A stretch of DNA of 64,000 nt from contig CAVZGV010000004.1 of the NCBI GenBank assembly GCA_963774955.1, forward strand, positions 67,522 to 131,521, given 5' to 3'. Below are positions 8,093-30,950 of this stretch, piece after piece. Source of the DNA: Candidatus Falkowbacteria bacterium (GTDB taxonomy: Bacteria; Patescibacteriota; Patescibacteriia; CAIXNZ01). The stretch's first letter is position 1. Every line of letters starts with the position of its first letter. Both the position numbers and the translations under genes were made by a program. A model generated the notes under the pieces. The model was not told the DNA's origin. It searched no databases and saw only the letters and a list, made by a program, of their open reading frames with translations.

Positions 8093-8093
8093 T

Positions 8094-9593: not shown

Positions 9594-10265
9594 ATGAACA
9601 CACATCCAGCCAAACAGAATATCAAAGTCGCGGTAGACAATTGTATTTTTACCATTATTGACAATGAACTTTATGTCTTGCTCATTCAAATGAAAAAAAG
9701 ACCCTATCAGGGCATGTGGGCTTTGCCGGGAGGACTGGTCAACCAAGGTGAAAACCTGGACAAGGCAGCTCTGAGGATCTTAAAGGACGAAACTAATGTC
9801 ACTGATGTTTATCTGGAACAGCTTTATACTTTTGGCAAAACCAAAAGGGATCCTTTAGGTCGGGTTATTTCCATTGCTTACTTTGCTCTTATCCCCTCAG
9901 CCAATCAGCAATTGAAAACTTTGGCCAAATACCAATCAGTCCAATGGTGGAAATATAATGACTTACCCAAACTGGCTTATGATCATAATGAAATTATCAA
10001 ATATGCCAAACAGCGTCTGGAGTGGAAAATTGAGTATACCAATGTTGTCTGGTCACTGTTACCTGAAAAATTCACCTTAAGACAATTACAGCAAGCTTAT
10101 GAAGCTATCTTGGGGAAAGCTATGGATAAACGCAATTTTCAGAAAAAAATCTTTGCCTTAAAATTAATCCAGCCTTTAGGGCAGAAAGCCATGTTTGGCG
10201 CTCATCGTCCAGCTGAACTTTATAGATTTAAAAGCCGCAAGCCCAAAATCGTTCAGATTCTATAA
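9594..10265 (+). CDS. nrtR: NrtR-like Nudix-related transcriptional regulator (N-terminal Nudix, C-terminal wHTH)
   Basis: Nudix box ALPGGLVNQGENLDKAALRILKDETNV; C-terminal FTLRQLQQAYEAILGKAMDKRNFQKK resembles NrtR wHTH; adjacent pnuC-nadR. Confidence 0.6.
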   Translation: MNTHPAKQNIKVAVDNCIFTIIDNELYVLLIQMKKRPYQGMWALPGGLVNQGENLDKAALRILKDETNVTDVYLEQLYTFGKTKRDPLGRVISIAYFALIPSANQQLKTLAKYQSVQWWKYNDLPKLAYDHNEIIKYAKQRLEWKIEYTNVVWSLLPEKFTLRQLQQAYEAILGKAMDKRNFQKKIFALKLIQPLGQKAMFGAHRPAELYRFKSRKPKIVQIL

Positions 10266-10347
10266 CGCTTTTTCTTACTTTTTTTTAACTTGACTTAGTG
10301 TATAAAATACACTTAAATATAAACTAACTAATTTAACCAACAAATCT

Positions 10348-11073
10348 ATGATCAACATTATCTCAAACTTCTTTAACATCAACAACACCTTTTTCACTCT
10401 TTGGGAATATCCCATGAGCTATCTGGAATTCTTCGGCACCTTGCTAAGCCTCCTGTGTGTTTATCTGGTCGCCAAGAAAAATATCTGGTCTTGGCCAATC
10501 GGCATTGTCGCCACCATCTTATTTGGAATACTTTTTTACCAAATTCAGCTCTACTCTGATTTCTTTGAACAAATTTACTTTCTAGTTACGGGCTTTATGG
10601 GCTGGTGGCTCTGGAAAAAGATGTCCAGCCAAAACAAAAAAAATAAGGAGAATATGGACCTTAAATTTAATAGCCCCAAACTAAACTTAATCTTACTGGC
10701 AGTAATTGTTGTCGGCACCGGAGCTCTTGGTTATTTAATGAGCAATATTCATCTTTACTTCCCTGCCTTATTTCCAATCGCCGCCACTTTTGCTTATCTG
10801 GATGCCTTTACCACTGCCATGAGCTTTGTCGCCAATATGTTATTGGTTTATAAGAGAATTGAAAATTGGCTCCTCTGGATCACCGTCGATATCATCGGCA
10901 TCTGGCTCTATTATGTCAAAGGCGTCAGATTCGTTTCCCTGCTTTATGTCATTTTCCTGGTGATAGCAACCAGCGGCTTAATTATCTGGCTCAGAGATTA
11001 TAAAAAAGCTAACAAACTAAATCAAACCTATGAAAAACGGAATTATAATCGGGAAATTTTACCCACTGCATAA
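10348..11073 (+). CDS. pnuC: nicotinamide riboside transporter PnuC
   Basis: strong similarity to E. coli PnuC region (LFGILFYQIQLYSDFF, GWWLWKK); multi-TM; start may be at internal Met 10414. Confidence 0.85.
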   Translation: MINIISNFFNINNTFFTLWEYPMSYLEFFGTLLSLLCVYLVAKKNIWSWPIGIVATILFGILFYQIQLYSDFFEQIYFLVTGFMGWWLWKKMSSQNKKNKENMDLKFNSPKLNLILLAVIVVGTGALGYLMSNIHLYFPALFPIAATFAYLDAFTTAMSFVANMLLVYKRIENWLLWITVDIIGIWLYYVKGVRFVSLLYVIFLVIATSGLIIWLRDYKKANKLNQTYEKRNYNREILPTA

Positions 11074-12064
11074 CGGACATTTAGCCTTAATTAACTTCGG
11101 ACTTAGCCAAGTTGATGAAATGACAGTCATTGTCTGCGATAAAAAAGGTCAACGCATTCCGGCCAAAGTCAGAGCCAATTGGATCAAAGAGCTGGCACCC
11201 AAGGCCAAAGTAATGATTGTTCCGGATATTGGCCAGGATGATGACTCTCAAGCTTGGGCCGATTACACCTTACAATTTCTGGGCTATAAACCTGACTGCG
11301 TCATCACTTCAGAAGCATACGGCAATACCTGGGCAGAATGCTTGAAAACTAAACATATCCTATTTGACCAGGCCAGAAACCTTGTACCTATCTGCGCTAC
11401 TAAAATTCGGGGAAATCCTTTGGCCAGTTGGGAATATTTACCGCCTCCGGTTCGCGCCTATTTTGCCAAAAGAATCTGCGTCATTGGAGCTGAATCAACC
11501 GGCACCACTACCCTGGCCAAAGACTTGGCTAAATATTACCAGACAACCTGGGTACCGGAATACGGACGCTATTATTCTGAAGCAAAACTTAATGCCAAGG
11601 ATAATAACAATTGGCGCACCGAAGAATTTTCCCACATTGCTGAAAAACAAAATCAGGCTGAAGATGCCCTGGCCCAAACCTGCAATAAAATCCTGATCTG
11701 CGATACTGATTCCTTTGCCACAGCGCTCTGGCATGAAAGATATCTGGGTAATTGGTCTGAACAAGTTGAAAAATTATTTTCAGACAGAAAAATTGATTAT
11801 TATCTGGTAACCAACGACGACATCCCCTTTGTTCAGGACGGTACCAGAGACGGCGAACACATCCGTCACCAAATGCAGCTGCGCTTTATCCAAGAACTAA
11901 AAAAAAGAAATAAAAAATTTACTGTTATTTCCGGAAATAAAGAAGAAAGGTTAACTAAAGCCGTTGAAATCTGCAACAAAATATTGGACGAACAGAATTT
12001 ATTTGCAAGTGCATATTTACAAACAAACAACATAACCATTAATAATAACGCTTATGTAAAATGA
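11030..12064 (+). CDS. nadR: NadR-type bifunctional NMN adenylyltransferase / ribosylnicotinamide kinase (no N-terminal HTH)
   Basis: GKFYPLHNGH (H/TxGH nucleotidyltransferase motif as in E. coli NadR); second-domain Walker A GAESTGTTTLAKDLA. Confidence 0.8.
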   Translation: MKNGIIIGKFYPLHNGHLALINFGLSQVDEMTVIVCDKKGQRIPAKVRANWIKELAPKAKVMIVPDIGQDDDSQAWADYTLQFLGYKPDCVITSEAYGNTWAECLKTKHILFDQARNLVPICATKIRGNPLASWEYLPPPVRAYFAKRICVIGAESTGTTTLAKDLAKYYQTTWVPEYGRYYSEAKLNAKDNNNWRTEEFSHIAEKQNQAEDALAQTCNKILICDTDSFATALWHERYLGNWSEQVEKLFSDRKIDYYLVTNDDIPFVQDGTRDGEHIRHQMQLRFIQELKKRNKKFTVISGNKEERLTKAVEICNKILDEQNLFASAYLQTNNITINNNAYVK

Positions 12065-12234
12065 AAATCCTTCTCCCCAGGAGCTGTGATTATGGGACAC
12101 GGCTCCTGTGACAGGAGGATATTATACCTTCGATTATCCAGATTGCTGGCATAAAGAAGGTAAAGGAAAGGTCTTTGAAAAAAAAGTATTGGGCTTCATT
12201 TCAACCAAACCAAACAAAAGGAGGTGGAAGTAAA

Positions 12235-12828
12235 ATGAAAAGAAAAAAGAACTTGCCCAAGCCGGTCAAATCCCAGCTGCGTATTATCGTGATCCGCTAC
12301 CGCAACAAACTCTATTTCCAGTTGGTTAACTTCCTATTCGACAAACTGGAAGCAAGAAATGTCAAGTATTTTTGCGGCAACGGCAAGATTACGGTTTTAC
12401 GTGACAGAAAAACCTTAGCCCGAATGGAATTTCGGGAAATCGAAGATGACCGAACCACAACCGATGGTTTCATTGAGCAATATCCCTGGGTGATCATGAA
12501 GCATGATGATTACTGCTTTTCGCGAGTACTTTTACCCCAATGGTTCAAACCAGGCGATATTTTACTCTTCAACTACACTACGCCGACTGACAAACTTTTT
12601 GCTCATCGGGTTGTGCCCGAAAAAATCACGCCCCAAGACGCAGCTGCCTATATGGTTTGGCCATATGCCTGGAGCATTTGTGCCTCAAAAGTCTACAATA
12701 ATTTAGGCAATCTGCTTTTGGGCAAACGCAAACAAGTGGATTTCAATTCCCTAATAGCAGCGTATACCCAAAAAGCTGTTTATCAGGGCAAAGAATTCCG
12801 AATCATTAACTTTTCCAAACTAGACTAA
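12235..12828 (+). CDS. hypothetical protein; first gene of GC-rich island
   Basis: GGAGG RBS before ATG 12235 (MKRKKNLPKP); GC jump at about 12200. Confidence 0.45.
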   Translation: MKRKKNLPKPVKSQLRIIVIRYRNKLYFQLVNFLFDKLEARNVKYFCGNGKITVLRDRKTLARMEFREIEDDRTTTDGFIEQYPWVIMKHDDYCFSRVLLPQWFKPGDILLFNYTTPTDKLFAHRVVPEKITPQDAAAYMVWPYAWSICASKVYNNLGNLLLGKRKQVDFNSLIAAYTQKAVYQGKEFRIINFSKLD

Positions 12829-12840
12829 AGGAGGACTGTC

Positions 12841-13446
12841 ATGAGAATCGAAGAGTACGCGAAATTGATAAGGACAGGACAGACAACGAAAAATCCTGTC
12901 ACGGGAATCTGCGGCCGAATAATTCGCGGCCAAAAACCGTCAGATTTTACCACCCTGACTGACGATCCTGAAAGAAAGATCGTCATGCTGGTGGATCCTG
13001 ACGGCCTGGCCAAATTGCTCGGCAAAACCGGATACCAAATGCTCATTGAAGTCGGCTACCAGCCGGATTACCTTGAGCATAAGGTCAAAGAAGGCAACCA
13101 ATTCAAACTGGCGGTCTTTCCCGAAGGCGGCGCTGCCCAGCTTGCGACCTGGGACAATGTCTTTGCCATGGTCAGTCAGGTCTATCCTGACATAACCTTC
13201 AGCACCCAGATCAAAAACGGCCTGAAGAAGCAAAGCTTTGACCAGATCGAAAAACAAGCCGGCTTCAAATTTCTTGAAGTGGAAAAAGCCGGAAAAAACG
13301 ATCCCCGCTTCATGACCTACAAGAAATTTAGAAATCCGGCCAGACCCTGGCCGACTTCCGCGCCTTCCTGTACTTCACCATCCATTTGCGTGAACTCTAC
13401 AGCGGCGACGGCTGGACCTATGACGACAAGGGCAATCGCGGAGTGA
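12841..13446 (+). CDS. hypothetical protein; C-terminal about 40 aa look out-of-frame (probable frameshift near 13325-13332 into the frame of the next gene)
   Basis: AGGAGG RBS; tail PARPWPTSAPSCTSPS is low complexity whereas the alternative frame from 13332 gives protein-like TLADFRAFLYFTIHLRELY and stays open to 13572. Confidence 0.35.
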   Translation: MRIEEYAKLIRTGQTTKNPVTGICGRIIRGQKPSDFTTLTDDPERKIVMLVDPDGLAKLLGKTGYQMLIEVGYQPDYLEHKVKEGNQFKLAVFPEGGAAQLATWDNVFAMVSQVYPDITFSTQIKNGLKKQSFDQIEKQAGFKFLEVEKAGKNDPRFMTYKKFRNPARPWPTSAPSCTSPSICVNSTAATAGPMTTRAIAE

Positions 13447-13571
13447 AAGAATACATCATCCCCAATCTGCCCATTGCCGACCTGGGTCCCAGCGAACTGA
13501 TCGACCTGGATATCCAACTGCCAACCGACATCAGCCCTGCCTTAAAAACAGGCAAAGAAAGGAGAACGACT

Positions 13572-14396
13572 ATGAAAAACCTGAAGATCCATATGCTGGT
13601 CATTGACCCGCAAAACGATTTCATGGACATCAATGGCGCCACCCTACCGGTGGCCGGAGCCAAAGATGACATGATCCGACTGGCGGGTCTGATCGACCGC
13701 GTCGGTCCCAAACTCGCGGACATCCATGTCACCATGGATAGCCACAGACTGCTGGACATCGCTCATCCCGCGTGGTGGGTGGACCAGAACCGGAACAACC
13801 CCGCACCCTTCACTATGATCACGGTCGACGACGTGGCCAACCGCATCTGGGTCCCGCGCAATCCCAACTTCTACGACCGCTGTCTGGCCTACGTCAAGGA
13901 ACTGAACCGCAAGGGCAACTACATGCTCTGCATCTGGCCGCCCCACTGCCTCATCGGCACCTGGGGACACAACGTATACCCCGAACTAAATGACGCTTTG
14001 CAGCTCTGGTCCGGCAAGGAATTCGCCATGGTCGACTACGTGACCAAGGGTTCCAACCCCTGGACCGAGCACTACGGCGCCATGGAAGCCGAGGTCCCGG
14101 ATCCTGAAGATCCCGGTACCCAGCTCAACACCAACTTTCTCAACATGCTGGCCGAGGCTGATATCGTCGCCATTGCAGGCGAAGCTCTCAGCCACTGCGT
14201 CAAAGCCACGGTTTCCCAGATCGCCGACAACATCGGCGAAGAGCACATCAAGAAGTTCCAGATCATCACCGATTGCACCAGCCCGGTCGGCGCCGTACCC
14301 AACGGCCCTGATTTCCCGGCCATTGCCCAGCAATGGTTGCTGGACATGCAAAAACGCGGCATGACCCTGGTCAAAGCCGACGACTTCCTGCGCTAA
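13572..14396 (+). CDS. isochorismatase-family cysteine hydrolase, nicotinamidase (PncA)-like
   Basis: MLVIDPQNDF, WPPHC, catalytic Cys context AGEALSHCV; AAAGGAG RBS before ATG 13572; frame is open upstream to 13332. Confidence 0.6.
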   Translation: MKNLKIHMLVIDPQNDFMDINGATLPVAGAKDDMIRLAGLIDRVGPKLADIHVTMDSHRLLDIAHPAWWVDQNRNNPAPFTMITVDDVANRIWVPRNPNFYDRCLAYVKELNRKGNYMLCIWPPHCLIGTWGHNVYPELNDALQLWSGKEFAMVDYVTKGSNPWTEHYGAMEAEVPDPEDPGTQLNTNFLNMLAEADIVAIAGEALSHCVKATVSQIADNIGEEHIKKFQIITDCTSPVGAVPNGPDFPAIAQQWLLDMQKRGMTLVKADDFLR

Positions 14397-14478
14397 ACCG
14401 GCAAACCCTGGGTTACCCCGCGTCGCGAGGTGACCCAGGGTAACCATCAATTTCCTAACCAAAGAAAGGAGAACGACC

Positions 14479-15234
14479 ATGCCACGCCTAATGGACAACG
14501 AAATGCAAGTTTCCAAAATTCCTGGAATGCAGGGATTTGCCTTCTCTGGCGTTCGGACCGAAAATCTCGGTGCCACCGAGTATACTCTGGTCACGATCGC
14601 GGTCGATGTTACCGGCTCGGTTGCCGGCTTTGAAAACGATCTGCGTAATTCGCTGATCGCCGCGGTCGAGGCCTGCAAAAAATCCCCGCGTTCCGATAAC
14701 CTGCTGTTACGGGTGATCATCTTCTCCACCAGCTACAAAAATGGGGTGGAAGAAATCCACGGGTTCAAACCCCTGGGTGAAATCGACCCGCAAGCCTATC
14801 CGCAGTTTCAGCCCGGAGGAGGCACTCCGCTTTTCGATGCCTGCTTCTCTGGCATCGGCGCCACCAACGTCTACGCCAAGAAGCTCATGGCCGACGATTT
14901 TCTGACCAACGGCATTGTCTTCATCATCACTGATGGCGAAGACAACGCTTCCCAGTCCACGCCCGCCATGATCAAGAAGGAAATCACCAAGGCCATCACC
15001 GGAGAAACCATCGAGTCCCTGATCACCGTCCTGATCGGCATCAACGCCAGCTACTGCAACCAAGCGCTGGATGATTTCCGCAATCAAGCGGGCATCAGCC
15101 AGTACATCGATGCCGGCCAGGCAACCAAAGGCAAGCTCGCTAAGCTGGCAGACTTCGTTTCTCAATCGGTTTCCAGTCAGTCCCAGGCTCTGGGTACTGG
15201 CGGACCGAGCCAGAAGATTTCTGCCACGATCTAA
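14479..15234 (+). CDS. vWA-domain protein (TerY-like) of a TerY-P triad
   Basis: MIDAS-like DVTGS, GGTPLFDA, IVFIITDGEDN. Confidence 0.65.
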   Translation: MPRLMDNEMQVSKIPGMQGFAFSGVRTENLGATEYTLVTIAVDVTGSVAGFENDLRNSLIAAVEACKKSPRSDNLLLRVIIFSTSYKNGVEEIHGFKPLGEIDPQAYPQFQPGGGTPLFDACFSGIGATNVYAKKLMADDFLTNGIVFIITDGEDNASQSTPAMIKKEITKAITGETIESLITVLIGINASYCNQALDDFRNQAGISQYIDAGQATKGKLAKLADFVSQSVSSQSQALGTGGPSQKISATI

Positions 15235-15351
15235 CAACCAAGGGAGATAATGGAGCAATCTGTTATCTCCCTATTTTTTCCCCACGTAGCGGGGTGAAAC
15301 CAGAAAGGCCCCGCCTACGCTAAAGCTTCTACGGACAAGGAGGTGAGATTC

Positions 15352-16227
15352 ATGATCCAGTTACAAACCGATCACTACTTCCACATTGGCAAAACGCACT
15401 TAACCAACGGTAAGCCTTGTCAGGATTATGCAATCTCACAGGTTATTAATGACGCAGCTATTGCGATCATCTGTGACGGTTGCTCTTCCGGCGGACAAAC
15501 CGATGTCGGCGCCAGGCTCTTAGGCTTAACCACCCAAGCTGCTTTGCTTAACCACTGGCTGACCAACGGCCAAATCATTCCGGAACCAACCAGCGCTGAA
15601 ATCAGGCTCAATCAAAAAATCAAACTAGCCTCTGCTTGTCAGCTTTTGGGACTGCAACCCAATGACTTGCTGGCCACCTGCGTTTACGCTTATTTCGGGC
15701 CGCAGGCCGGAATTATTCACATCCAGGGAGACGGAGTCGTTGCCCTCAAATTCACTGACCAACATATCCTGATGCACCGATTTGAGTGGCAAGACAATCG
15801 ACCCTATTACCCGGCTTATGCTGAAAGTCGCTTGGCTGATTTCATTGCCGCTCATGGTAATAATCTGCAAGCCTTACGTTTGAAATCCGAAACCTGGCAA
15901 ACCGTCGCGTCTCAACAACAGCTTTTACAGACCAACGACTACACGCTGAGCCAGGGACTGCAAGGCCTGATCATCAACTTGGACCAGACACTGATCAGCC
16001 AAGGGCTGGAATTCATTGCCGTCTTTTCCGACGGCGTCACCCAAATTGACAATGTGAATTGGCAAGACGCGGTGACTGAATTCCTCAGTTTCAAAAATAC
16101 CAAGGGTGAATTTGCCAAGCGCAGAATGATCCGCGGTATTCAGGATATGATCAAGGTTAATAAAGGTCCATTGGATGACATTGCTTACGCGGTAATTCGG
16201 TTGGACCAAAACCAAAAGGAGGTGTGA
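15352..16227 (+). CDS. PP2C-family Ser/Thr phosphatase
   Basis: IAIICDGCSSGGQTDVGARL and AVFSDGVTQ motifs; AAGGAGG RBS before ATG 15352. Confidence 0.55.
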   Translation: MIQLQTDHYFHIGKTHLTNGKPCQDYAISQVINDAAIAIICDGCSSGGQTDVGARLLGLTTQAALLNHWLTNGQIIPEPTSAEIRLNQKIKLASACQLLGLQPNDLLATCVYAYFGPQAGIIHIQGDGVVALKFTDQHILMHRFEWQDNRPYYPAYAESRLADFIAAHGNNLQALRLKSETWQTVASQQQLLQTNDYTLSQGLQGLIINLDQTLISQGLEFIAVFSDGVTQIDNVNWQDAVTEFLSFKNTKGEFAKRRMIRGIQDMIKVNKGPLDDIAYAVIRLDQNQKEV

Positions 16228-16228
16228 G

Positions 16229-17962: not shown

Positions 17963-17975
17963 CGCCCAACGGGGG

Positions 17976-18013
17976 GAGAAATTGTACCACGTTACAATTT
18001 CTCCCCCACTTCT
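17976..18013 (+). terminator. rho-independent terminator after kinase gene
   Basis: ggggagaaattgta...tacaatttctcccc hairpin. Confidence 0.6.
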
Positions 18014-18290
18014 TTCTTCATAAAATTGCGACCAAAAATATTTTGGTCATAATTTTATACTTTAATCTGAGATTAAAGTGAAACTAAGTTCTTTAAAACT
18101 TATACTCAAAACATATTTTACCCCTCCTTGGGGGTTTGGGGGGCCGAACTAAGCGTCGTGATCAAAACCACGAACGAACCATATGCACTAGCGCATTGAG
18201 GCCCCCCAAAACTTTTTGCATACTTTTTTGTTCAAAAAAGTATGAAGCCGAAGGCTTAAAGTTCTCAGAACCTGAAAGGAGGACCTAATC

Positions 18291-18488
18291 ATGGAAACCA
18301 CCAAACACAACCGGGAAGTGGTCCAAAGAGTGGGCGACTTGGTCGTAGACCTGTCTAACGAAGTCGATCCGCTGCCCATGTCTGAACCGGCCAAAGAAGC
18401 CATGGTCATGGTCATGGTTGCCAACTGCCTAAAAAGCCAGGGCAACATTGTTACCTTTTGTCTGCCAACCTTCAAGACTGGCTTATAA
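18291..18488 (+). CDS. small hypothetical protein (65 aa)
   Basis: AAAGGAGG RBS; preceded by AAAGTTCT box; followed by terminator 18557-18603. Confidence 0.45.
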   Translation: METTKHNREVVQRVGDLVVDLSNEVDPLPMSEPAKEAMVMVMVANCLKSQGNIVTFCLPTFKTGL

Positions 18489-18769
18489 CCAAGGCAATCT
18501 GAGACAGACAAAAAACTTAAATTTTCAGCTAATTTAAGCTGAAATGTTTTACTAGCACCATTAGCGGGGAAAGTCGGTTTTCACCCCGGCTTTCCCCCTT
18601 TTTAAAACCTTGACAAATATAACATATTTTGATAAACTAATAAGTCGTCTTTTACCTAATCTTAGACGAGCAATAGAAAATTTTAACTAAATAATTTTGG
18701 TTAAATTTTTCTGGCTTTGACTCAGTCAAAACCACAGTCCTTTAAACCTTAATTTAAGGGAGAAATCCT

Positions 18770-22128: not shown

Positions 22129-22140
22129 AGGAGGCTACAA

Positions 22141-23376: not shown

Positions 23377-23424
23377 AAACCTGGCCCTCCGTATTTCATC
23401 AACGTTAGCGAACTTCGGAGGGCC

Positions 23425-23504
23425 CTCTACTCAAATTATTTTTAGGTGAACCAAAATCCAGAATCTATAATCTAGAATCTAGAATCCAAAAAAATAATTT
23501 AGGC
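23425..23504. repeat. intergenic inverted-repeat module, family A copy 1
   Basis: CTACTCAAATTATTTTTAGG ... (AATCTAGA)n ... AAAAAATAATTTAGG; preceded by terminator hairpin 23383-23424. Confidence 0.8.
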
Positions 23505-23542
23505 GGAGAAAGTTCTTTTCAAAAAAACAAAAGGAGAAAATC

Positions 23543-24694
23543 ATGCAAGTAGTTTACGCAGGTGAAAAAATTCCAACCAGCTGGAAAAAATCCATTTTCC
23601 TGGCTGGCCCAACTCCCCGAGACAAAAATGTTGTCTCATGGAGACCTGAAGCTTTGGCCATCTTACAGGCCAAAGGTTATGATGGCGTAATTTTCGCTCC
23701 GGAAAATCGGGACGGTCAGTCCAGACCCAATTATAATGACCAAGTCGAATGGGAAAACGAAGGACTTAACCGCACCGATGTTATTTTGTTCTGGGTACCG
23801 CGGGAACTGAAAACCATGCCCGCCTTTACCACTAATGTGGAATTCGGCGAATGGTTCAAATCCGGCAAAATCGTTTTGGGCTTTCCCCAGGACGCGCCCA
23901 ACATGAGATATCTGGAAAGCAAGGCCAAAGCTTTCAACGTTTCCTGCGCAGATACGCTGGAGGCAACGATTGATCTGGCCTTGAACATGCTCGGCGCCGG
24001 CGCGGATAGAAATAACGGAGAAACCTATGTGCCTTTACACATCTGGCAGACACCGGCTTTCCAAAACTGGTACCAGAATCTCAAAGCAGCCGGTAACCGG
24101 CTGGACTCAGCTCGAGTCGAGTGGGTTTTCCGCGTTGGTCCCAAGAAAAACTTTGTTTTTCTCTGGGTCCTGTATGTTGATGTTTTCATTACCAAGGAAA
24201 ACCGCCACAAAACCAACGAAGTCATTCTGGCTCGCCCGGACATTGCCACCATCCTGATGTACAAACCCGCAAAAATTTTGCTGGAAACTGAGATTGTCCT
24301 GATCCGGGAATTTCGCAGTCCGGTTTCCAACTCTGACGGCTATGTCTGGGAAATCCCCGGCGGTTCATCTTTCAAACCGAAAGAAGATCCCAACAAACTC
24401 GCAGCGCATGAAGCTTTTGAAGAAACCGGGATGGAAATTCTAGCCGAACGTTTCAAAGCAATCGATGCCAGGCAACTCTGCGCCACACTGTCCACTCACA
24501 AGGCTCATCTGTTTGCCGTGGAAGTAACCGATGATGAAATCAATTGGTTACGCCAGCAGCAAGGAGTTGCTCACGGCGTAATCGAAGACACGGAACGCAC
24601 TTACGTGGAAATAAAAACCCTTCAAGAAATTCTGGCTCAGAATCTGGTTGACTGGAGCATACTCGGCATGATCCTCTCAGTCTTAATAAAATAA
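23543..24694 (+). CDS. fusion of nucleoside 2-deoxyribosyltransferase-like domain and NUDIX hydrolase
   Basis: KSIFLAGP Rossmann-like N-terminus; C-terminal Nudix box GGSSFKPKEDPNKLAAHEAFEETGM. Confidence 0.55.
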   Translation: MQVVYAGEKIPTSWKKSIFLAGPTPRDKNVVSWRPEALAILQAKGYDGVIFAPENRDGQSRPNYNDQVEWENEGLNRTDVILFWVPRELKTMPAFTTNVEFGEWFKSGKIVLGFPQDAPNMRYLESKAKAFNVSCADTLEATIDLALNMLGAGADRNNGETYVPLHIWQTPAFQNWYQNLKAAGNRLDSARVEWVFRVGPKKNFVFLWVLYVDVFITKENRHKTNEVILARPDIATILMYKPAKILLETEIVLIREFRSPVSNSDGYVWEIPGGSSFKPKEDPNKLAAHEAFEETGMEILAERFKAIDARQLCATLSTHKAHLFAVEVTDDEINWLRQQQGVAHGVIEDTERTYVEIKTLQEILAQNLVDWSILGMILSVLIK

Positions 24695-24737
24695 ACTCTT
24701 TAGGCCCAGTACCGAGCTTTGCTCTGGTGCTGGGCTA

Positions 24738-24813
24738 TCTACTCAAATTATTTTTGTTAATCAAAATCTAAAATCCATAATCTAGAATCTATTATCTACA
24801 AAAATAATTTAAG
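24738..24813. repeat. intergenic inverted-repeat module, family A copy 2
   Basis: CTACTCAAATTATTTTTG ... AATCTA repeats ... CAAAAATAATTTAAG; terminator hairpin 24703-24735. Confidence 0.8.
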
Positions 24814-24861
24814 TAGGGATAGTTCCTTAAATTTTAAAGAAACACAAAAGGAGAAATAAAG

Positions 24862-25680
24862 ATGACCATGCCGAGAGATTTAATTTTGGTTCGCCACGGA
24901 CAGTCCGAAGGCAACCTGGTAATTATGCAATTGGAAAAGCAAGGACTGCCAGTGCCGGATGAATATTACCGCAAGCACACAGCTCACTGGCGTCTGACCA
25001 GCAAAGGAGTACAGCAGGCGGAAATAGCAGGACAATGGCTGCGGCAGAACTTGGTTACCGAATTTGACCGCTACTATGTTTCTGACTATGTCAGGGCCAA
25101 AGAAACAGCCGCCTTACTCGGGCTGAAACAGGCTTCCTGGGGCATCAACATTTACCTTGGCGAACGCAACTGGGGTATTATGGATCGATATACTGAAGAA
25201 GAAAGAAACAAAATCTTTGAGATTGATTTAGTAACCAAGAAGATCCACCCCTTTTACTGGACCCCGCCCCGCGGCGAATCCATGGTTCAGCTGTGCCTGC
25301 GTCTGGAAAAAGTCCTGGAAACTCTGCATCGCGAATGCGCTGATGGCCGGGTTATTCTAGTCTGTCACGGCGAGGTAATGTGGGGCTTTCGGATCATTCT
25401 GGAAAGAATTCCTCCGGACAAATACGTGAAACTTGATGAATCCAAAAATCCTTTTGACAGGATTCACAACTGCCAAATTCTGCACTACTCGAGAAAAAAT
25501 CCCGGCACTGGTCAGCTTTCTGACCATCTCGACTGGATGAGGTCTCTTTGTCCGACGGATCTGAGTTTATCTGCCAATGCCTGGCAAGAAATTAGCCGAC
25601 CGCGGTTTACCAACGAACAGCTGCTGAAACATGCAGCCAAATTTCCTCGGGTAATCGATAATCAGGAGGAAAAATCATGA
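24862..25680 (+). CDS. histidine phosphatase superfamily (phosphoglycerate mutase-like) protein
   Basis: LILVRHGQSEGN (RHG motif). Confidence 0.7.
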   Translation: MTMPRDLILVRHGQSEGNLVIMQLEKQGLPVPDEYYRKHTAHWRLTSKGVQQAEIAGQWLRQNLVTEFDRYYVSDYVRAKETAALLGLKQASWGINIYLGERNWGIMDRYTEEERNKIFEIDLVTKKIHPFYWTPPRGESMVQLCLRLEKVLETLHRECADGRVILVCHGEVMWGFRIILERIPPDKYVKLDESKNPFDRIHNCQILHYSRKNPGTGQLSDHLDWMRSLCPTDLSLSANAWQEISRPRFTNEQLLKHAAKFPRVIDNQEEKS

Positions 25681-26639
25681 TTGACAAAATCGCTCACGGC
25701 CAGGGCCAGATGAGAGCCCAGTCTTTTTCCATTCAGGTTTCTGACCGGGAAAAATGCAATGCGGGCTGCAAATTTTGCATCTCGCGCACCACGCCCGGAG
25801 ATTCCCAAAGAATTCTGATTCCAAAGATGCAAGAGACAAAACCCAAGCTCTGCGACTTTGACCGCCTTAAAATCGGCCTGAATTATGCCAGAAGTCTGGG
25901 TGCAACTCATGCTATCCTGACTGGCAAGGCTGATCCGCTTCAGGAGCCGACCGAAGAGCTGTGCAAATTGCTTCAGCTCTGCCGGGAATATCTGCCGCTC
26001 GCGGATATGCACACTAATGGATTACTCCTCCATCCTGAATTCAATAGAGGAAATGACCTGACCCAGCTCAAACAAGCGGGTTTAACCATGATCACTATTT
26101 CTCTGGCATCCTTCAACGAGCAGCAGAACTTTGAACTGATGCGCATCAAAAAAAGCGCCGCTGACCTGATTAAACAAGCAGCGGATCTTGGCCTGCTGGT
26201 GCGCTGCTCCCTGGTCGTCAATGCTCAGGGAGTCGCTGATGTGGCAGGCGTGATTGATTATTGCAGACAAGCCGGTGAGCTCGGCGCTCATATGGTCGTG
26301 GTTCGCGAAGTCTGGGTGCCTGAAATCTATGGCGAGCGCAACCTGGGAGTCTACGATTGGAACAAAACCAATAAGATCAACATCAAGCCGATCCAGGACC
26401 ATTTCATTGAAATTTGCCATAAGAAAAATGATTTTGGCCTATGCCAACTTGATCCTTTGCCATGGGGCACTCCGGTCTTTGGCATGGCCGGTGTCTTTAC
26501 CAATCAAGATCACGGGGTAAACATCACCTTTGCCTGTTGTGACGAAGGCACCACCGGTTCGGTCATCAAGTCTATCGTGCACAAACCCAACGGCCACGGT
26601 TACGGTAATTGGGATCATGGTGGTCGTATCCTTTATTAA
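25677..26639 (+). CDS. radical SAM enzyme of unknown specificity
   Basis: CNAGCKFC (Cx3Cx2C); AGGAGG RBS; ATGA overlap with upstream gene. Confidence 0.6.
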   Translation: MIDKIAHGQGQMRAQSFSIQVSDREKCNAGCKFCISRTTPGDSQRILIPKMQETKPKLCDFDRLKIGLNYARSLGATHAILTGKADPLQEPTEELCKLLQLCREYLPLADMHTNGLLLHPEFNRGNDLTQLKQAGLTMITISLASFNEQQNFELMRIKKSAADLIKQAADLGLLVRCSLVVNAQGVADVAGVIDYCRQAGELGAHMVVVREVWVPEIYGERNLGVYDWNKTNKINIKPIQDHFIEICHKKNDFGLCQLDPLPWGTPVFGMAGVFTNQDHGVNITFACCDEGTTGSVIKSIVHKPNGHGYGNWDHGGRILY

Positions 26640-26676
26640 ATTTTTAGGGCGAATCCCGCGACGCAGGATTCGCCCC

Positions 26677-26778
26677 TCTACTCAAATTATTTTTAGGTAA
26701 TCAAAATCTAGAATCTATGCCGCGTAGCGGCATCCCGCTTCGCGGGAAAACCTAAAATCTAACTAAAAATAATTTAGG
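26677..26778. repeat. intergenic inverted-repeat module, family A copy 3 (with extra GC hairpins in the centre)
   Basis: CTACTCAAATTATTTTTAGG ... gccgcgtagcggc / cccgcttcgcggg ... CTAAAAATAATTTAGG. Confidence 0.8.
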
Positions 26779-26851
26779 CGGAGACAGTTCTTTTCAAAAA
26801 CATTTAACCAAGTCGCCGTCGCTAAAGCTATGGCGACTAAAGGAGAAAAAA

Positions 26852-27859
26852 ATGAGCAGAGACAAAGTAAGAGCCATGTTTTTGGGAGTGGCCATCGGCG
26901 ATGCCCTGGGCATGCCAGTGGAAACAAAAAACTTTTTGGAAATCGAAACTGAGCATGGCCGCGTAACAGATTATCTGGATCCCGGTAACCATAAATGGTT
27001 CAAAGGGTTTCAGCGCGGACAATGGACTGATGATACCCAAGCCACCTTGGCTGTGCTCACATCCCTGATTATTCAAGGCAAAATTGACTTGGCTGATATG
27101 GCTCAGAGACAGATAGACACAATGAACGAATGTTCAAAGGGCTGGGGACGCAGCACCAAAAACTCTCTTCGTGCAGTTGAACGCGGGGTTCACTGGCTGA
27201 AATCAGGTAATCCCCAGGGAGCCGGCAATGGCGTGGCCATGAAAATCGCGCCGCTGGCAGCCTATCTGGCCGCTCCCAATACCGATCATGCCATTGCCGA
27301 AAATGTTGCCGAACTGGCACTGATGACCCATCAGACTGACATGGCGGTACTTTCCGGCTTTGTCCAAATGCACGCTTTGTCATATTGCCTCAATTGCGTC
27401 GACGAAAATCGCCCTTTTTCCGCCGAAGGTCTGTTACAGTATGTTCTGCGCTACGGCAAAGCAGTCAAAGTCATGCTGCGCGAAAAAAAATATCAGCTGA
27501 CCTATCTGCAGGAGGATTTCCTCGGCCGCTTTGCCGCAATGATGTGTCTGTTTGATGAATTCAAGCAGATGACACCGGCCAAATTGGCCGAATGTTACGG
27601 CGGCGCTGACTGCTATGTTTACAATTCGCTGCCATTCACCATTGCCATGTTCCTGCGCAATCCGCATTCCATTGAAACTCTTTACGACACGGTCAATGCC
27701 GGCGGCGACACAGATACCAATGGTTCCATGGTCGCTGCTCTGCTCGGCAGCCTTAACGGCACCAAGATTTTCCCAGCGCATCTGATTGACGGCCTGTGGC
27801 AGAAAGACCGGATTCTCCAGGTCGCCAATGACTTCTGCGACCGTTTCCAAATCAAATAA
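26852..27859 (+). CDS. ADP-ribosylglycohydrolase (ARH/DraG family)
   Basis: AIGDALGMPVE and AGGDTDTNGSMVAALLGS signatures. Confidence 0.8.
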   Translation: MSRDKVRAMFLGVAIGDALGMPVETKNFLEIETEHGRVTDYLDPGNHKWFKGFQRGQWTDDTQATLAVLTSLIIQGKIDLADMAQRQIDTMNECSKGWGRSTKNSLRAVERGVHWLKSGNPQGAGNGVAMKIAPLAAYLAAPNTDHAIAENVAELALMTHQTDMAVLSGFVQMHALSYCLNCVDENRPFSAEGLLQYVLRYGKAVKVMLREKKYQLTYLQEDFLGRFAAMMCLFDEFKQMTPAKLAECYGGADCYVYNSLPFTIAMFLRNPHSIETLYDTVNAGGDTDTNGSMVAALLGSLNGTKIFPAHLIDGLWQKDRILQVANDFCDRFQIK

Positions 27860-27900
27860 ACTCCCGAGGCGTGAATTCCTAAATTCAGGAGTTCACGCCT

Positions 27901-27973
27901 CCTAACTCAAATTATTGTTCCGCCCAAAAATCTAAAATCTAGAACCTAAAATCCAACAATAATTTAAGTTAGG
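27901..27973. repeat. intergenic inverted-repeat module, family A copy 4
   Basis: CCTAACTCAAATTATTGTT ... AACAATAATTTAAGTTAGG (19-bp inverted repeat) flanking AATCTA repeats; terminator 27866-27901. Confidence 0.8.
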
Positions 27974-28022
27974 AGGGAAAGTCCCTTAACAATTTTAAAA
28001 AATACCAATAGGAGGTTTTCAG

Positions 28023-28934
28023 ATGAACAAGCAAATCCTGTACTACTGCCCGCAAATGGCTGACCTGGCGCCAAAAATCAAAACGCTTTGTCCTGATCTT
28101 GTTTTGGGAAACATTTCCTGGGACTTTTTCCCTGATGGTTTTCCCAACATCAAAATCAACGACGTCAAAATGGCCAAAAACGCAGACGTTATCTTTCTGG
28201 CCAGTCTGGACAGCCCGGCTGAAATTTTCAATCAGCTGAGCGTAATCTATGCCCTGCCCCGCTACCTGGTAAAATCGCTCAAAGTGATTTTGCCCTTTTA
28301 CCCGACTGGAACCATGGAAAGAATTGAAACTCAAGGTGAGATTGCCACGGCCATGACCTTGGCACGGATGCTGTCAGCAACGCCAATGACGCAAAGTGGC
28401 CCAACACAAATCATCATCTATGACATCCATGCACTCGGAGAACAGTTTTATTTTTCCGATCAGGTGCTAGTCAGACTGGAAACAGTGGCTGATTCTTTGA
28501 TCGAACTTTTTCCCAAAGATGAATACGATCTGGCTTTCCCTGATGACGGCGCTTACAAACGCTTTGCCCGTTATTTCCCGGGTTATCCCGAGATCATCTG
28601 CCAAAAAGTTCGCGATGGTGATAAGCGCATCATTCAGATCAAAGAAGGAAAGCCTCGGGGCAGAAAAATTGTCATGATTGACGATTTGATCATGTCCGGC
28701 GGAACACTTCTCGAATGCGCCCAAAAATTGCTTGAAGCCGGAGCCCTTGAAGTTCTGGCCTATGCCACCCATCCGGTTTTCCCGGTCAACTCCTGGAAAC
28801 GGTTCATAACCAGCGACATTCTTAAAGTCGTGGTGACTGATTCCTGCCCCAAAACCGTGGCCACAATCAAAGGTCAGCCGAAATTTCAGATAATTTCTCT
28901 GGCCGACAAAATCGCCAACATCATAAACGAGTAG
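28023..28934 (+). CDS. prs: ribose-phosphate pyrophosphokinase (PRPP synthetase) family protein with divergent flexible loop
   Basis: DIHALGEQFYF, PRPP motif VMIDDLIMSGGTL, YATHPVF; the loop region PFYPTGTMERIE differs from canonical PYFGYARQDR. Confidence 0.7.
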   Translation: MNKQILYYCPQMADLAPKIKTLCPDLVLGNISWDFFPDGFPNIKINDVKMAKNADVIFLASLDSPAEIFNQLSVIYALPRYLVKSLKVILPFYPTGTMERIETQGEIATAMTLARMLSATPMTQSGPTQIIIYDIHALGEQFYFSDQVLVRLETVADSLIELFPKDEYDLAFPDDGAYKRFARYFPGYPEIICQKVRDGDKRIIQIKEGKPRGRKIVMIDDLIMSGGTLLECAQKLLEAGALEVLAYATHPVFPVNSWKRFITSDILKVVVTDSCPKTVATIKGQPKFQIISLADKIANIINE

Positions 28935-28947
28935 AAAGGAGTTCAAG

Positions 28948-30915
28948 ATGGGACTGATCAAAATTGGCATGGCTAATATCGACACCACTGTCGGTGCCGT
29001 AGCTTCCAACACTGACAAAATCATCGCCTGTCTCGAAAAGATGTGCGCTGAAAAAGTCACTATTGCCTGTTTCCAGGAACAAGTAATTGGCGGTTATCCT
29101 GCCGAAGACTGGATTCAGTGGCCTGATTTCGTCGCCGCTCAACAGCGCGAACTATACAAAATCATTGCCTTGAGCGGAAAACGGAAATTTCCTGCCGTGA
29201 TCACCCTGGGAGTTACCATGAAGGTTGAAAACAACCTCTATAACTGCCAGGCGGTAATTGCTGATGGCATGTTGATCGGTATTGTGCCCAAGGAAAAACT
29301 GCCGACCTATGGAGTGTTCTACGAAGGTCGAACTTTTTCTCCCGGTATCCCTTATGATTACCGACAAATTGCCACCGGAACATTAGTCAACTTCGGCGAC
29401 ATGATTTTTAAGGCTTCTTTCGGCACTTTTGCCGTGGAAGTCTGTGAGGATATTTGGACACCGGACGGCCCCATGAAACGCCGAGCCTACAGCGGGGCCG
29501 AACTGATCATCAATGCTTCTGCATCCCCTTTCCGCGTCGGCGTGGTTAACACCCGGAAGGAAATGCTGGCCACCAGATCGGCTGACAATCAGGCCACCGT
29601 GGTCTATGTCAACCAGTATGGAGGCAATGATTCCCTGGTCTTTGACGGCGGCGGTTACATTTACCAAAATGGCCGCTGCCTGCTGGAAGCACCCCGCTGG
29701 CAATCGGGCATCTCCTACCAAACTGTGGATCTGAATGTGACTGCCACCTGTCGTCAAACAAACACCACCTGGCGGATGGATCAGCAGGAATTTCTCAAAA
29801 CCAACCAGCCGGTACAAACGATTCCGTGCAATTGTAACCGAGTTCTCAATGAGGACTATGAGTATCCCAAACCCGCGAACCAGAACTTCTTCATGCCGGC
29901 AGTGAAACCGAAAATCGACGAACGCGCCGAATATTTCGAAAATCTGATCGAAGCCATGATTACCGGGCTGGACGGTTACTATGCAAAAACCAATGCTTTC
30001 AAGGGCATTGGCATCGCTCTGTCCGGCGGCAAGGATTCCGTACTAACGCTGATGATTGCCTGGCTTTACCGCCAAAAAATTTATCAGAGAGCAAAAGAAG
30101 CAAACAACTACGCCAAAGTCAGCTTTGCTGATTTTATCCGCTGTTTCTCCATGCCGAGCAAGTTCAATTCGGATACAACCAAGAATATTTCCCGCCTGCT
30201 GTGCGAGGAACTTGAGGTCAGCCTGATTGAACTTTCGATTGAAGATGCATTTGAGCGTGAAGTCGCCGCCACAAAAAAAATGCTGGGACTGCCTCAGACA
30301 GCTGAGCTGAAAAAAATCACCCTGCAAAACATTCAGGCCAGAATCCGCGGCCAGCGCATGCTCAATTGGGCCAATGAAACCAATGGTATGTGGTTGCAAA
30401 CCGGCAACATGTCCGAGAAGGCAGTGGGATACACCACAGTCGGCGGAGACATGATGGGAGCTTACTCCCTGATTTCCAATCTGCCCAAGTCTGTCATCAT
30501 TGAACTGATTGACTATCTGACTGAAAGGTATCAGTTTGAAGGGCTGAAGCTGTTGCAACAGACCAAGCCTTCGGCTGAACTGGCACCTGACCAGGAAGAT
30601 GAAAAGGATTTGATGCCCTTCCCGATTTTAGATGCCTGTATGCATCTCTTTGTCGGGGAAAAGATGAATCCCAGTCAGATGCTGAAAGTCCTCAAAAGCA
30701 TGTGGACTGAAGAGGAACTGAGAGCCATGACTCCGGGTTATGCCCCTGACATTCTCAAGGCATGGGTTAACAAATTCATCACTCTGTTCCATCGCTCCAT
30801 TTTCAAATGGGTTCTCACCCCCGAAGGTGTCCATTTGGGAAAGGAAGATCTGGATCGTGAACGAGCCACGCAACTGCCGGTAGTAACATCTACCGAATGG
30901 TTGCCTAAGCTTTAA
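28948..30915 (+). CDS. nadE: glutamine-dependent NAD+ synthetase (CN-hydrolase plus NAD synthase domains)
   Basis: 655 aa; PP-loop SGGKDS in C-terminal domain; N-terminal nitrilase-like domain. Confidence 0.8.
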   Translation: MGLIKIGMANIDTTVGAVASNTDKIIACLEKMCAEKVTIACFQEQVIGGYPAEDWIQWPDFVAAQQRELYKIIALSGKRKFPAVITLGVTMKVENNLYNCQAVIADGMLIGIVPKEKLPTYGVFYEGRTFSPGIPYDYRQIATGTLVNFGDMIFKASFGTFAVEVCEDIWTPDGPMKRRAYSGAELIINASASPFRVGVVNTRKEMLATRSADNQATVVYVNQYGGNDSLVFDGGGYIYQNGRCLLEAPRWQSGISYQTVDLNVTATCRQTNTTWRMDQQEFLKTNQPVQTIPCNCNRVLNEDYEYPKPANQNFFMPAVKPKIDERAEYFENLIEAMITGLDGYYAKTNAFKGIGIALSGGKDSVLTLMIAWLYRQKIYQRAKEANNYAKVSFADFIRCFSMPSKFNSDTTKNISRLLCEELEVSLIELSIEDAFEREVAATKKMLGLPQTAELKKITLQNIQARIRGQRMLNWANETNGMWLQTGNMSEKAVGYTTVGGDMMGAYSLISNLPKSVIIELIDYLTERYQFEGLKLLQQTKPSAELAPDQEDEKDLMPFPILDACMHLFVGEKMNPSQMLKVLKSMWTEEELRAMTPGYAPDILKAWVNKFITLFHRSIFKWVLTPEGVHLGKEDLDRERATQLPVVTSTEWLPKL

Positions 30916-30921
30916 GCTTTA

Positions 30922-30950
30922 AGCCCCCTGCTAAGCGGGGGGCTTTTTTT
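30922..30950 (+). terminator. rho-independent terminator at end of GC-rich island
   Basis: gccccctgctaagcggggggc hairpin + T7 run. Confidence 0.7.

Follow-up and report, generated by a model that had tools for sequence, protein, structure and literature searches.

A lineage-conserved, NrtR-linked gene supercluster with a probable role in NAD(P) salvage and ADP-ribose recycling in a Parcubacteria-type bacterium

Herein, we analysed the genes at positions 9,594–30,950 of a 64,000-nucleotide stretch of DNA (the window) from Candidatus Falkowbacteria bacterium, taken from a 455 kb contig (CAVZGV010000004.1, positions 67,522–131,521). An initial annotation, made from the letters alone, had described this region as a GC-rich, horizontally acquired island that restores nicotinamide adenine dinucleotide (NAD). 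The predicted proteins were searched against Pfam, NCBIfam with its curated equivalog cut-offs, PDB sequences, PADLOC and PHROGs, and the locus was compared with four other genomes carrying the cluster: JAPLYC01 (L247/L083 and L003, the sister genome below), a 245-kb JGI contig (L248), GCA_042568725.1 (L252) and a 394-kb ENA contig (L251). The results suggest that the locus is probably a lineage-conserved, NrtR-linked supercluster for NAD(P) salvage and ADP-ribose recycling in a Parcubacteria-type bacterium of the candidate phyla radiation (CPR), and not a recent island.

Every gene between 9,594 and 30,915 lies on the + strand, as do the terminators and cassettes described below. Pfam and NCBIfam matches supported the earlier claim that one strand encodes a nearly complete set for NAD(P) salvage together with a regulator, and bore out the calls of NrtR, PnuC, NadR, a NadD-like protein, PncA, NadK, PncB, NadE, a Prs-like protein, an ADP-ribosylglycohydrolase (ARH), a fusion of a nucleoside deoxyribosyltransferase (NDT)-like domain with Nudix, a His_Phos_1 phosphatase and a radical SAM enzyme. 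The first gene, nrtR (9,594–10,265), encodes a Nudix/winged-helix repressor predicted to respond to ADP-ribose (Pfam NrtR_WHD 1.4e-25, NUDIX 5.5e-15). Its match to the NCBIfam model TransRepNtr (5.8e-44) was under the equivalog cut-off, and its Pfam architecture, with a Nudix-like domain at the N-terminus and a winged-helix DNA-binding domain at the C-terminus, is the one that the regulator of an NrtR regulon requires. It is followed by genes for the nicotinamide riboside transporter PnuC (10,348–11,073; Pfam NMN_transporter 1.9e-49) and a NadR-type NMN adenylyltransferase and ribosylnicotinamide kinase without a helix-turn-helix domain (11,030–12,064; Pfam AAA_28 1.1e-31, CTP_transf_like; TIGR01526 2.2e-66, under the cut-off). 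The pnuC and nadR genes are chromosomal, have a host-like GC content of 0.39–0.41 and are kept in place in L247 and L248. As the profile matches show, PnuC and NadR would take up nicotinamide riboside and turn it into NAD.

Farther downstream are a NadD-type nicotinate mononucleotide adenylyltransferase (18,770–19,405; TIGR00482 4.4e-28, Pfam CTP_transf_like), whose 98.6 bits against a cut-off of 112 for TIGR00482 make it a family-level match only, and the nicotinamidase PncA (19,384–20,007; Pfam Isochorismatase 3.6e-9, PRK11609 2.7e-13). PncA and a second, nicotinamidase-like hydrolase described below are the two isochorismatase-fold proteins of the locus; both contain strings that we take to be nicotinamidase-like from the signature of the family, and both score far under the equivalog cut-off. 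NAD kinase (NadK) is encoded at 21,343–22,128 (Pfam NAD_kinase and NAD_kinase_C; PRK04761 4.7e-53). The type I nicotinate phosphoribosyltransferase PncB (22,141–23,376) was above both NCBIfam cut-offs, with 437.6 bits for NF003704 (cut-off 379) and 354 bits for TIGR01514 (269.6), and matched PDB 1ybe at 1.3e-91. A divergent, Prs-like ribose-phosphate pyrophosphokinase (28,023–28,934) reached 111.1 bits against the TIGR01251 cut-off of 113 and aligned with PDB Prs up to residue 301 of 316 (E 1.8e-17); with annotated phage 'prs' genes it shared 23–25% identity (E about 1e-6), in a comparison that did not include verified Adps sequences. The last gene encodes a glutamine-dependent NAD synthetase, NadE (28,948–30,915), with CN-hydrolase and NAD synthase parts (Pfam CN_hydrolase 1.1e-16, NAD_synthase 3.1e-26), and its domain model was above the cut-off (TIGR00552 89.9 bits, cut-off 63.65). 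Profile matches thus show a predicted Preiss-Handler route from nicotinamide and nicotinate, made up of PncA and the second nicotinamidase-like hydrolase, PncB, NadD and NadE, and likewise a NadK that would make NADP.

Between these genes lie enzymes with a possible connection to ADP-ribose. The NDT-Nudix fusion (23,543–24,694; Pfam Nuc_deoxyri_tr2 1.3e-13, NUDIX) was modelled by AlphaFold2 (AF2) with a pLDDT of 82.5. In Foldseek searches, its C-terminal half matched best the ADP-ribose pyrophosphatases NudF and NUDT5 (E 6e-10), and its N-terminal half matched the putative nucleoside deoxyribosyltransferase 4mcj. An ARH is encoded at 26,852–27,859 (Pfam ADP_ribosyl_GH 2.7e-55). It is plausible that the locus handles ADP-ribose through this ARH and the modelled Nudix half, which resembles an ADP-ribose pyrophosphatase (ADPRase). 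A branch 1 histidine phosphatase (24,862–25,680; Pfam His_Phos_1 3.8e-24) had alpha-ribazole phosphatase as its best NCBIfam match (6e-12, far under the cut-off). Translationally coupled to its gene is that of a radical SAM enzyme with a CX3CX2C motif (25,677–26,639; Pfam Radical_SAM 2.5e-7), for which the nearest families were MoaA and viperin, all far under the cut-offs. The ORF at 20,143–21,165 (probable start 20,233), which the initial annotation had called a degenerate Nudix-like protein, had no profile hit; it does carry a variant Nudix box, E-x7-HEAKDEVGL, and the pattern GGHLDIKG...E-x7-HEAxDE-G was conserved in four orthologues. For the ORFs of the region, PHROGs returned weak or unnamed families only, and PADLOC gave weak pVip-like matches for the radical SAM enzyme only, with no TerY-P or other defence assignment. 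A cobalamin lower-ligand link, combining a CobC-like phosphatase with nicotinate mononucleotide, was considered and dropped, since the phosphatase match was weak and the radical SAM enzyme was not ThiC- or BzaF-like.

The second hydrolase belongs to a four-gene module located at 12.8–18 kb. Its vWA-like, PP2C and kinase genes, a one-nucleotide frameshift, a near-orphan gene termed unk1 and four intergenic cassettes had not been reported by the initial annotation. In L247 and L248, the hydrolase is the C-terminal part of a fusion protein encoded by a single in-frame ORF of 518 aa, whose N-terminal domain matched no known family. In the window, the N-terminal ORF (12,841–13,446) is truncated by a 1-nt deletion near 13,330, and the alignment showed the missing base within 13,290–13,420. 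Either the assembly is wrong at this base, or the N-terminal domain has truly been pseudogenised. The hydrolase half (13,386–14,396; NCBIfam PRK11609 3e-5, PDB nicotinamidases 8e-5) keeps its own start, ATG 13,575, with a strong ribosome-binding site (RBS), a repeat at 13,553–13,574. Its translation contains the strings DPQNDF, WPPHC..G, KG..HYGA and SHCV, presumably those of a nicotinamidase-like cysteine hydrolase, and stand-alone versions of 275–281 aa were found in L251 and L084, the latter a distant GC-rich CPR contig.

The vWA-like protein (14,479–15,234) has a MIDAS-type motif (D-x-T-x-S ... T ... D), in which D43, S47, T116 and D152 were invariant across 27 homologues. The Pfam VWA model matched 2 of these 27 (best 4.2e-5), a weak and transitive assignment; homologues are named 'YegL' and 'vWA domain-containing' in their sources. 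PDB searches with the vWA-like protein were uninformative both with the single sequence and with a profile, which gave no hit. The PP2C-type protein phosphatase (15,343–16,227; Pfam PP2C_2 9.1e-15) is followed by a Ser/Thr-type protein kinase of 577 aa with a C-terminal beta-propeller (16,229–17,962; Pfam Pkinase 1.1e-7). The AF2 model of its 288 C-terminal residues (290–577) had a pLDDT of 88.9 and 28 strands, and its best Foldseek matches were beta-propellers. PDB sequence searches were uninformative for the kinase, the radical SAM enzyme and the NDT-Nudix fusion. In CPR bacteria, the vWA and kinase families have many members of conserved length, and the kinase family keeps a steady length of 573–589 aa across Patescibacteria.

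NrtR operators are palindromes of about 21 bp with a GT-N7-AC core (PMC2330246). Two predicted sites of this type, fitting the pattern T[A/T]GTGTA-N5-[T/G]ACACT[A/T], were found in the window, TTGTGTATATAAGACACTA (9,451–9,469; GT-N7-AC core), located 125 bp upstream of nrtR, and TAGTGTATAAAATACACTT (10,296–10,314), located between nrtR and pnuC. Operator 1 was identical in L247, L248, L251 and L252, and all four have a site at the position of operator 2, just downstream of nrtR. The same motif was present upstream of the hydrolase-vWA-PP2C-kinase(-NDT-Nudix) operon in L251 and L084. In CPR contigs it also preceded radical SAM-NDT-Nudix genes and pncA (L240), nadE and pncA (L187), and pncB and pnuC (L084); in L240, the radical SAM homologue was directly behind the operator. 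There were 9 such sites in 0.88 Mb of CPR contigs; shuffled sequences and viral loci (1.5 Mb) contained none. The predicted operators before uncharacterised genes in CPR contigs place those genes in the NAD regulon.

A different repeated element was found within the cluster. Promoter-like intergenic cassettes of ~110 bp, each with a hairpin, CTCAAATTATTTTT, (AGAATCT)n heptads, AAAAATAATTTAGG and an RBS, precede the NDT-Nudix (23,420–23,540), histidine phosphatase (24,732–24,856), ARH (26,671–26,800) and Prs-like (27,896–28,008) genes. They also occur in the sister genome, where copy 1 corresponds to L247 19,289–19,350 and copy 4 to L003 at 2,119, and not in L248. These cassettes stand before exactly those genes that vary between relatives.

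The shift in GC content claimed by the initial annotation was real, although its figures had to be corrected: the jump is from ~38% to ~48% and not from 33% to 50%, and the step is at ~12.84 kb, not at 12.2 kb. The GC content was 0.483 at 12,841–30,950, compared with 0.381 at 1–9,593 and 0.377 at 30,951–64,000, and the stretch from nrtR to unk1 was in between (0.403). The mean GC3 of the 16 genes in the block was 0.569, versus 0.360 for 38 window genes outside it (Mann-Whitney p=1.9e-8), and GC1 and GC2 were also higher (0.537/0.373 versus 0.465/0.317). Codon choice differed as well, with CTG at 0.47 versus 0.17 and ATC at 0.54 versus 0.24, and the enriched codons were mostly C-ending or CTG. 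The genes that are most conserved, those of the fusion protein and the vWA-like protein, are also the GC-richest. The left GC step is sharp and coincides with the start of the fusion gene. On the right, GC drops at ~30.9 kb (0.46 to 0.35), together with a strong intrinsic terminator at 30,921–30,945 (11-bp stem with 8 G-C pairs, followed by TTTTTT). Pfam profile scans of the ORFs in the block found no integrase, and no phage hallmark genes turned up in these scans. No direct repeats were found at the borders; the search brought up the internal cassettes instead. Neither end is abutted by a tRNA gene, the nearest being 1.4–2.2 kb outside the borders, and the 19-kb block gave no DNA match in a megablast against phage records.

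The cluster was found at the same locus in the four other genomes, with TsaE-TsaD ... Nudix on the left and the tandem 3D-like genes and PolA on the right, where the contigs reach that far. Across the five genomes the gene order nrtR ... hydrolase-vWA-PP2C-kinase ... nadK-pncB ... nadE was kept. These are diverged genomes: compared with the window, JAPLYC01 was 83% identical in PolA and 87% in TsaD, L248 85% in TsaD and L252 66% in TsaD, giving a range of 66–87% for TsaD where the left flank was recovered. Proteins of the cluster were about as conserved as core proteins; against L248, the identities were 89% for vWA, 88% for the kinase and 90% for PncB, with TsaD at 85%. The shared locus and the core-like conservation of its proteins imply that the block was in place before these species diverged. 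The GC excess of the island over its flank was also shared, amounting to +0.105 in the window, +0.107/+0.111 in L247/L003, +0.118 in L248, +0.058 in L252 and +0.042 in L251. An assembly chimera was rejected, since the layout is common to 4 independent assemblies. One relative (L004, PolA 80%) is without the region between the same flanking genes; relative to L004, the window contains ~22 kb extra, from ~8.95 to 30.94 kb, between a conserved small gene and the first 3D-like gene. These boundaries are near those originally proposed and include nrtR-pnuC-nadR.

The gene content of the cluster varied among the five genomes around an invariant core, namely NrtR, the nicotinamidase-like hydrolase, vWA, PP2C, the kinase, NadK, PncB and NadE. 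PncB was of type I (411 aa) in the window and L248 and of type II (534–542 aa, NAPRTase_C) in L247, L251 and L252, and NadE was of the long glutamine type in the window, L248 and L251 and short in L247/L003 and L252. The NDT-Nudix fusion was present in the window and L247 only. The histidine phosphatase and Prs-like genes were present in the window, L247/L003 and L252, and not in L248 or L251. ARH was not found in L252, and PnuC-NadR were not found in L251 or L252. Gene by gene, this pattern fits no single tree.

The host is, as judged from its genes, a Parcubacteria-type CPR bacterium. The flanks encode TsaD/TsaE, PolA, HolA, RmuC, YchF, HisD and a type II/IV secretion ATPase, and the relatives of PolA were from Parcubacteria, Falkowbacteria, Buchananbacteria and other Patescibacteria. 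To the left of the island are a small conserved gene (8,662–8,904) and a zinc-ribbon ORF (9,010–9,231); a fused zinc-ribbon and small-gene version is located to the right of the island in the sister genome (L003 4,178–4,501), and in L004 the small gene directly adjoins the 3D-like gene. The tandem 3D-like paralogues (31,127–31,639 and 31,708–32,244) are 48% identical, have no Pfam hit and are the conserved right neighbours of the island in L003, L004, L251 and L252. An IS200-like Y1 transposase gene (5,433–6,047, − strand) occupies the same position by tsaD in L247 (72%) and L248 (54%), which suggests a domesticated or long-resident copy and not an active insertion. Within the cluster, unk1 (12,175–12,828, probable start 12,235) had no family hit and only one other cluster representative (2 among 1.84 billion). 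This genome alone has it inserted, downstream of nadR and ahead of the fusion gene; its GC content is intermediate (0.42), and it was not found in L247, L248 or L252. The 807-bp gap between the kinase gene and nadD (17,963–18,769) contains two strong terminators, the first directly after the kinase gene (17,972–18,007; 15-bp stem followed by a T-rich tail). It also holds a 65-aa ORF with an RBS (18,291–18,488), an uncertain gene with its own terminator at 18,566–18,597, and a promoter-like TTGACA-17-TAAACT at 18,610. At the position of this ORF, relatives have an unrelated cysteine-rich gene of 105–111 aa.

Beyond these genomes, the closest known holders of the island genes are other CPR bacteria. 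The NDT-Nudix fusion had 2,289 homologues; among those listed with a named source, most were from Patescibacteria, with identities of 53–65% outside the clade of the window. The fusion shared ~50% identity with gp334 of Bacillus phage G and with a gene of phage LR745208 (485 kb). In metagenome contigs, NAD genes, the radical SAM enzyme, the hydrolase, vWA and the kinase cluster around NDT-Nudix in shuffled orders. At least 80 IMG/VR viral contigs contained a vWA homologue; of 80, 78 had the hydrolase, 68 PP2C and 73 the kinase. The viral order was usually hydrolase-vWA-PP2C-kinase, with pncB, nadD, nadE or nrtR sometimes inserted. These viral scans used alignment-based queries; single-protein queries with NDT-Nudix and the Prs-like protein matched nothing. 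Identities of the window copies were 63/63/42/54/62% with the CPR contig L084 and 48/48/27/29/51% with phage LR745208, so that the CPR homologues were closer than those of phages (54–63% versus 27–51%, with the pair of 42% and 27% also part of the comparison). Homologous modules span GC contents of 0.23–0.66 according to the replicon, which argues that the proteins do not demand a high GC content.

Two of these distant modules have unusual neighbours. On plasmid 2 of Variovorax sp. PBL-H6 (L250, 839 kb), positions 152,965–169,853 hold Nudix<>hydrolase-vWA-hypothetical-NDT-NAD kinase, and the neighbours are two Nudix genes, a macro-domain gene, RNase HII, AlkB and RecX. In L084, from a GC-rich CPR genome, an AT-rich insert (11,300–17,400) splits the NAD cluster between NDT-Nudix and pncB, and carries HEPN_AbiV, SocA_Panacea, KilA-N and Fic genes.

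These genes suggest a model of a closed loop. NAD consumers would release nicotinamide and ADP-ribose, and accumulating ADP-ribose would free the operators of NrtR, as in other NrtR proteins, leading to de-repression. Nicotinamide would be returned to NAD through PncA, PncB, NadD and NadE. ARH would free ADP-ribose from modified substrates, and the ADPRase-like half of NDT-Nudix would split it into AMP and ribose-5-phosphate, while the NDT-like half may free more ribose-5-phosphate from a mononucleotide. From ribose-5-phosphate, the Prs-like enzyme would make phosphoribosyl pyrophosphate for PncB, so that both halves of a broken NAD would be recaptured. PnuC and NadR would add imported nicotinamide riboside, and NadK would make NADP. 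The vWA/PP2C/kinase-propeller trio may serve as a phosphorylation switch that tunes the NAD flux, and the histidine phosphatase/radical SAM pair and the variant Nudix protein may act on ribosyl or nucleotide intermediates. As to its history, the block may have entered the ancestor of the clade from a GC-richer source and then have been passed down at the same locus, with exchanges of individual genes. Such an ancient acquisition with continuing module exchange is plausible.

Several points weigh against this interpretation. Apart from PncB and the NadE domain, most assignments score under the curated equivalog cut-offs. The gene inventory covers the 64-kb window, and the rest of the genome may encode NAD synthesis de novo or a further copy of prs, nadD or nadE. 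The roles given to the vWA/PP2C/kinase trio, the radical SAM enzyme, the histidine phosphatase and the variant Nudix protein are guesses from context, and the hydrolase fusion gene is frameshifted in the window. The two operators are the only NrtR sites found in the window, and the GC-rich block holds none at ≤2 mismatches, the sole 4-mismatch hit being at 32,378, outside the block; four of the genes carry the other repeated cassette instead. Furthermore, simple acquisition followed by amelioration does not explain a GC excess of +0.10 kept over a core-protein divergence of 13–25%.

For the origin of the block, two other explanations were weighed. The cluster might be native to the lineage, its GC excess being kept by selection or biased repair, for example through C-ending codons in highly expressed genes. 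This would fit the excess at the same genes in five diverged genomes, the mostly C-ending or CTG codons and the high GC content of the most conserved genes. We regard it as unlikely, since GC1 and GC2 are raised too, homologous modules occur over a wide range of GC contents, and the smaller excess in L251 and L252 is what partial amelioration would predict; the window, moreover, offers no comparison with ribosomal genes or others known to be highly expressed. Conversely, the foreign-looking composition, the missing region in L004 and the many families shared with huge phages (NDT-Nudix in phage G and LR745208, the four-gene operon in viral contigs) could mark a recent NAD-reconstitution island, derived from a mobile element or phage and directed against NAD-depleting toxins or defence. 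Phage NAD pathways are indeed established anti-defence tools, as for NARP1 and NARP2 (bioRxiv 10.1101/2024.02.11.579819), NARP3, composed of PnuC and NadR (PMC13464706), and the NAD-jumbo phages (PMC11662467). A recent origin of this kind is nevertheless improbable: the block is syntenic in four other genomes, its GC step is the same in the three closest (window, L247/L003 and L248), its borders and profile scans lack the features of a mobile element, it has no DNA match to phage records, and its CPR homologues are closer than those of phages. The NrtR operator is of a chromosomal type and was not found in the viral loci, there is no NamPT/Namat gene, and the Prs-like protein resembles cellular Prs. 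Accordingly, the horizontal origin put forward by the initial annotation stands in a weak, historical sense, in view of the composition and of L004, and does not extend to a recent acquisition, as the same gene order was largely found in relatives with a GC excess of +0.04 to +0.12. The anti-defence or anti-toxin role that it had offered is unsupported, with no phage genes in the island scans and with the NamPT/Namat hallmark of NARP1 and NARP2 missing.

A further explanation concerns the function. In the conflict systems centred on ARG predicted by Iyer et al. 2022, an ARH, a Nudix-helix-turn-helix repressor, a phosphatase and a vWA chaperone would strip viral ADP-ribose from host proteins, and the NAD enzymes would then be accessory. 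All four types of component are present here (ARH at 26,852–27,859, NrtR, the histidine phosphatase and the vWA-like protein), Pfam scans of the island ORFs found no ADP-ribosyltransferase or sirtuin family, and module gain and loss between close genomes fits the hallmark of such systems (PMC9503650, section 3.8). The resemblance is loose, consisting of the shared neighbourhood of these parts with variable accessories, and the explanation is scarcely credible for this locus. In such a system, ARG would form the constant core, closely tied to a phosphatase and a Nudix or WYL regulator, but here ARH is optional, being missing from L252, and adjoins neither NrtR, vWA nor the phosphatase; the phosphatase belongs to none of the families named in PMC9503650 (rhodanese-phosphatase, calcineurin-like, HD, HAD); and there are no nuclease effectors. 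The invariant core is instead biosynthetic, with NadK, PncB and NadE beside the hydrolase-vWA-PP2C-kinase module.

The lineage-conserved salvage supercluster has other counterparts among known systems. NrtR regulons include nrtR-pncA-pncB-nadD-nadE in Clostridium, nadR-pnuC-nrtR in Streptococcus and nrtR-prs-nadV in Shewanella (Rodionov et al. 2008, PMC2330246). The present locus shares with them a regulator beside salvage genes, a GT-N7-AC palindrome, a dedicated prs paralogue and the PnuC-NadR and PncA-PncB-NadD-NadE modules. It differs in its ~20 genes, CPR genome, compositional anomaly, only two operators in the window and the other repeated cassette, and adds NadK, ARH, NDT-ADPRase, the histidine phosphatase, the radical SAM enzyme and the vWA/PP2C/kinase trio. 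By its predicted gene functions, the locus is an enlarged variant of the NrtR-controlled salvage clusters (PMC2330246). With NAD-jumbo phages and NARPs it has in common the clustering of PncB-NadD-NadE, PnuC-NadR and a prs-like gene, as well as NDT-Nudix and the four-gene operon, which are shared with huge phages. Unlike them, it is chromosomal, syntenic among species and NrtR-linked, without NamPT/Namat or NadM, and no link to a defence system was seen. The adjacent genes for a PnuC-like and a bifunctional NadR-like protein match NARP3, but here they are chromosomal and not phage-encoded. NARP1 consists of Adps and Namat; beside the Prs-like gene there is no Namat/NamPT, the only type II phosphoribosyltransferase being PncB, five genes away, and by indirect scores the Prs-like protein seems not to be Adps-like. 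Adps is marked by loss of the C-terminal alpha11-alpha12 module; the alignment of the Prs-like protein with cellular Prs runs to residue 301 of 316 (E 1e-17). For NARP2 (NamPT and NMNAT), no NamPT-type match was found among the island ORFs.

The TerY-P triad consists of vWA, PP2C and a Ser/Thr kinase, the kinase having a zinc ribbon or OB fold, according to the summary in PMC11090510 (Anantharaman et al. 2012; Gao et al. 2020). As in the triad so summarised, the vWA-like, PP2C and kinase genes are adjacent here, and presumably form a phospho-switch, the vWA call resting on the MIDAS-type motif and weak transitive Pfam hits. In contrast to that summary, the kinase carries a beta-propeller and not a zinc ribbon or OB fold, and the trio is nearly always behind a nicotinamidase-like hydrolase, among NAD genes. 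The PADLOC TerY-P models gave no match at E≤0.01. We tentatively raise the possibility that the hydrolase-vWA-PP2C-kinase-propeller operon is an undescribed, widely mobile, NAD-linked phospho-switch, occurring in thousands of CPR bacteria as well as in many huge phages and on at least one megaplasmid of a proteobacterium. It might sense NAD breakdown through nicotinamide or ADP-ribose, gate the rebuilding of NAD or join in NAD-centred virus-host conflict, and the radical SAM/histidine phosphatase pair might carry out new chemistry on an intermediate derived from ADP-ribose. The operon is often joined by the NDT-ADPRase fusion and the radical SAM enzyme. New in this locus are its setting in CPR bacteria, a persisting GC anomaly, and the hydrolase-vWA-PP2C-kinase module, which is linked to NrtR, shared with phages and accompanied by NDT-ADPRase and a radical SAM enzyme.

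CPR bacteria are believed to rely on partner organisms for their cofactors. The conserved 20-gene locus, which would import, rebuild and recycle NAD(P), shows how such reduced cells may keep this pool closed and which of its parts can differ from one species to another. It also serves as a caution that a sharp GC step may be old and stably inherited, and not a sign of recent transfer. Large uncharacterised families, namely the NDT-ADPRase fusion (>2,000 homologues), the vWA/PP2C/kinase-propeller trio and the radical SAM enzyme, gain a functional context from this locus. Predicted NrtR operators connect these families with NAD metabolism; the families also recur in giant phages, for which NAD supply is a known battleground.

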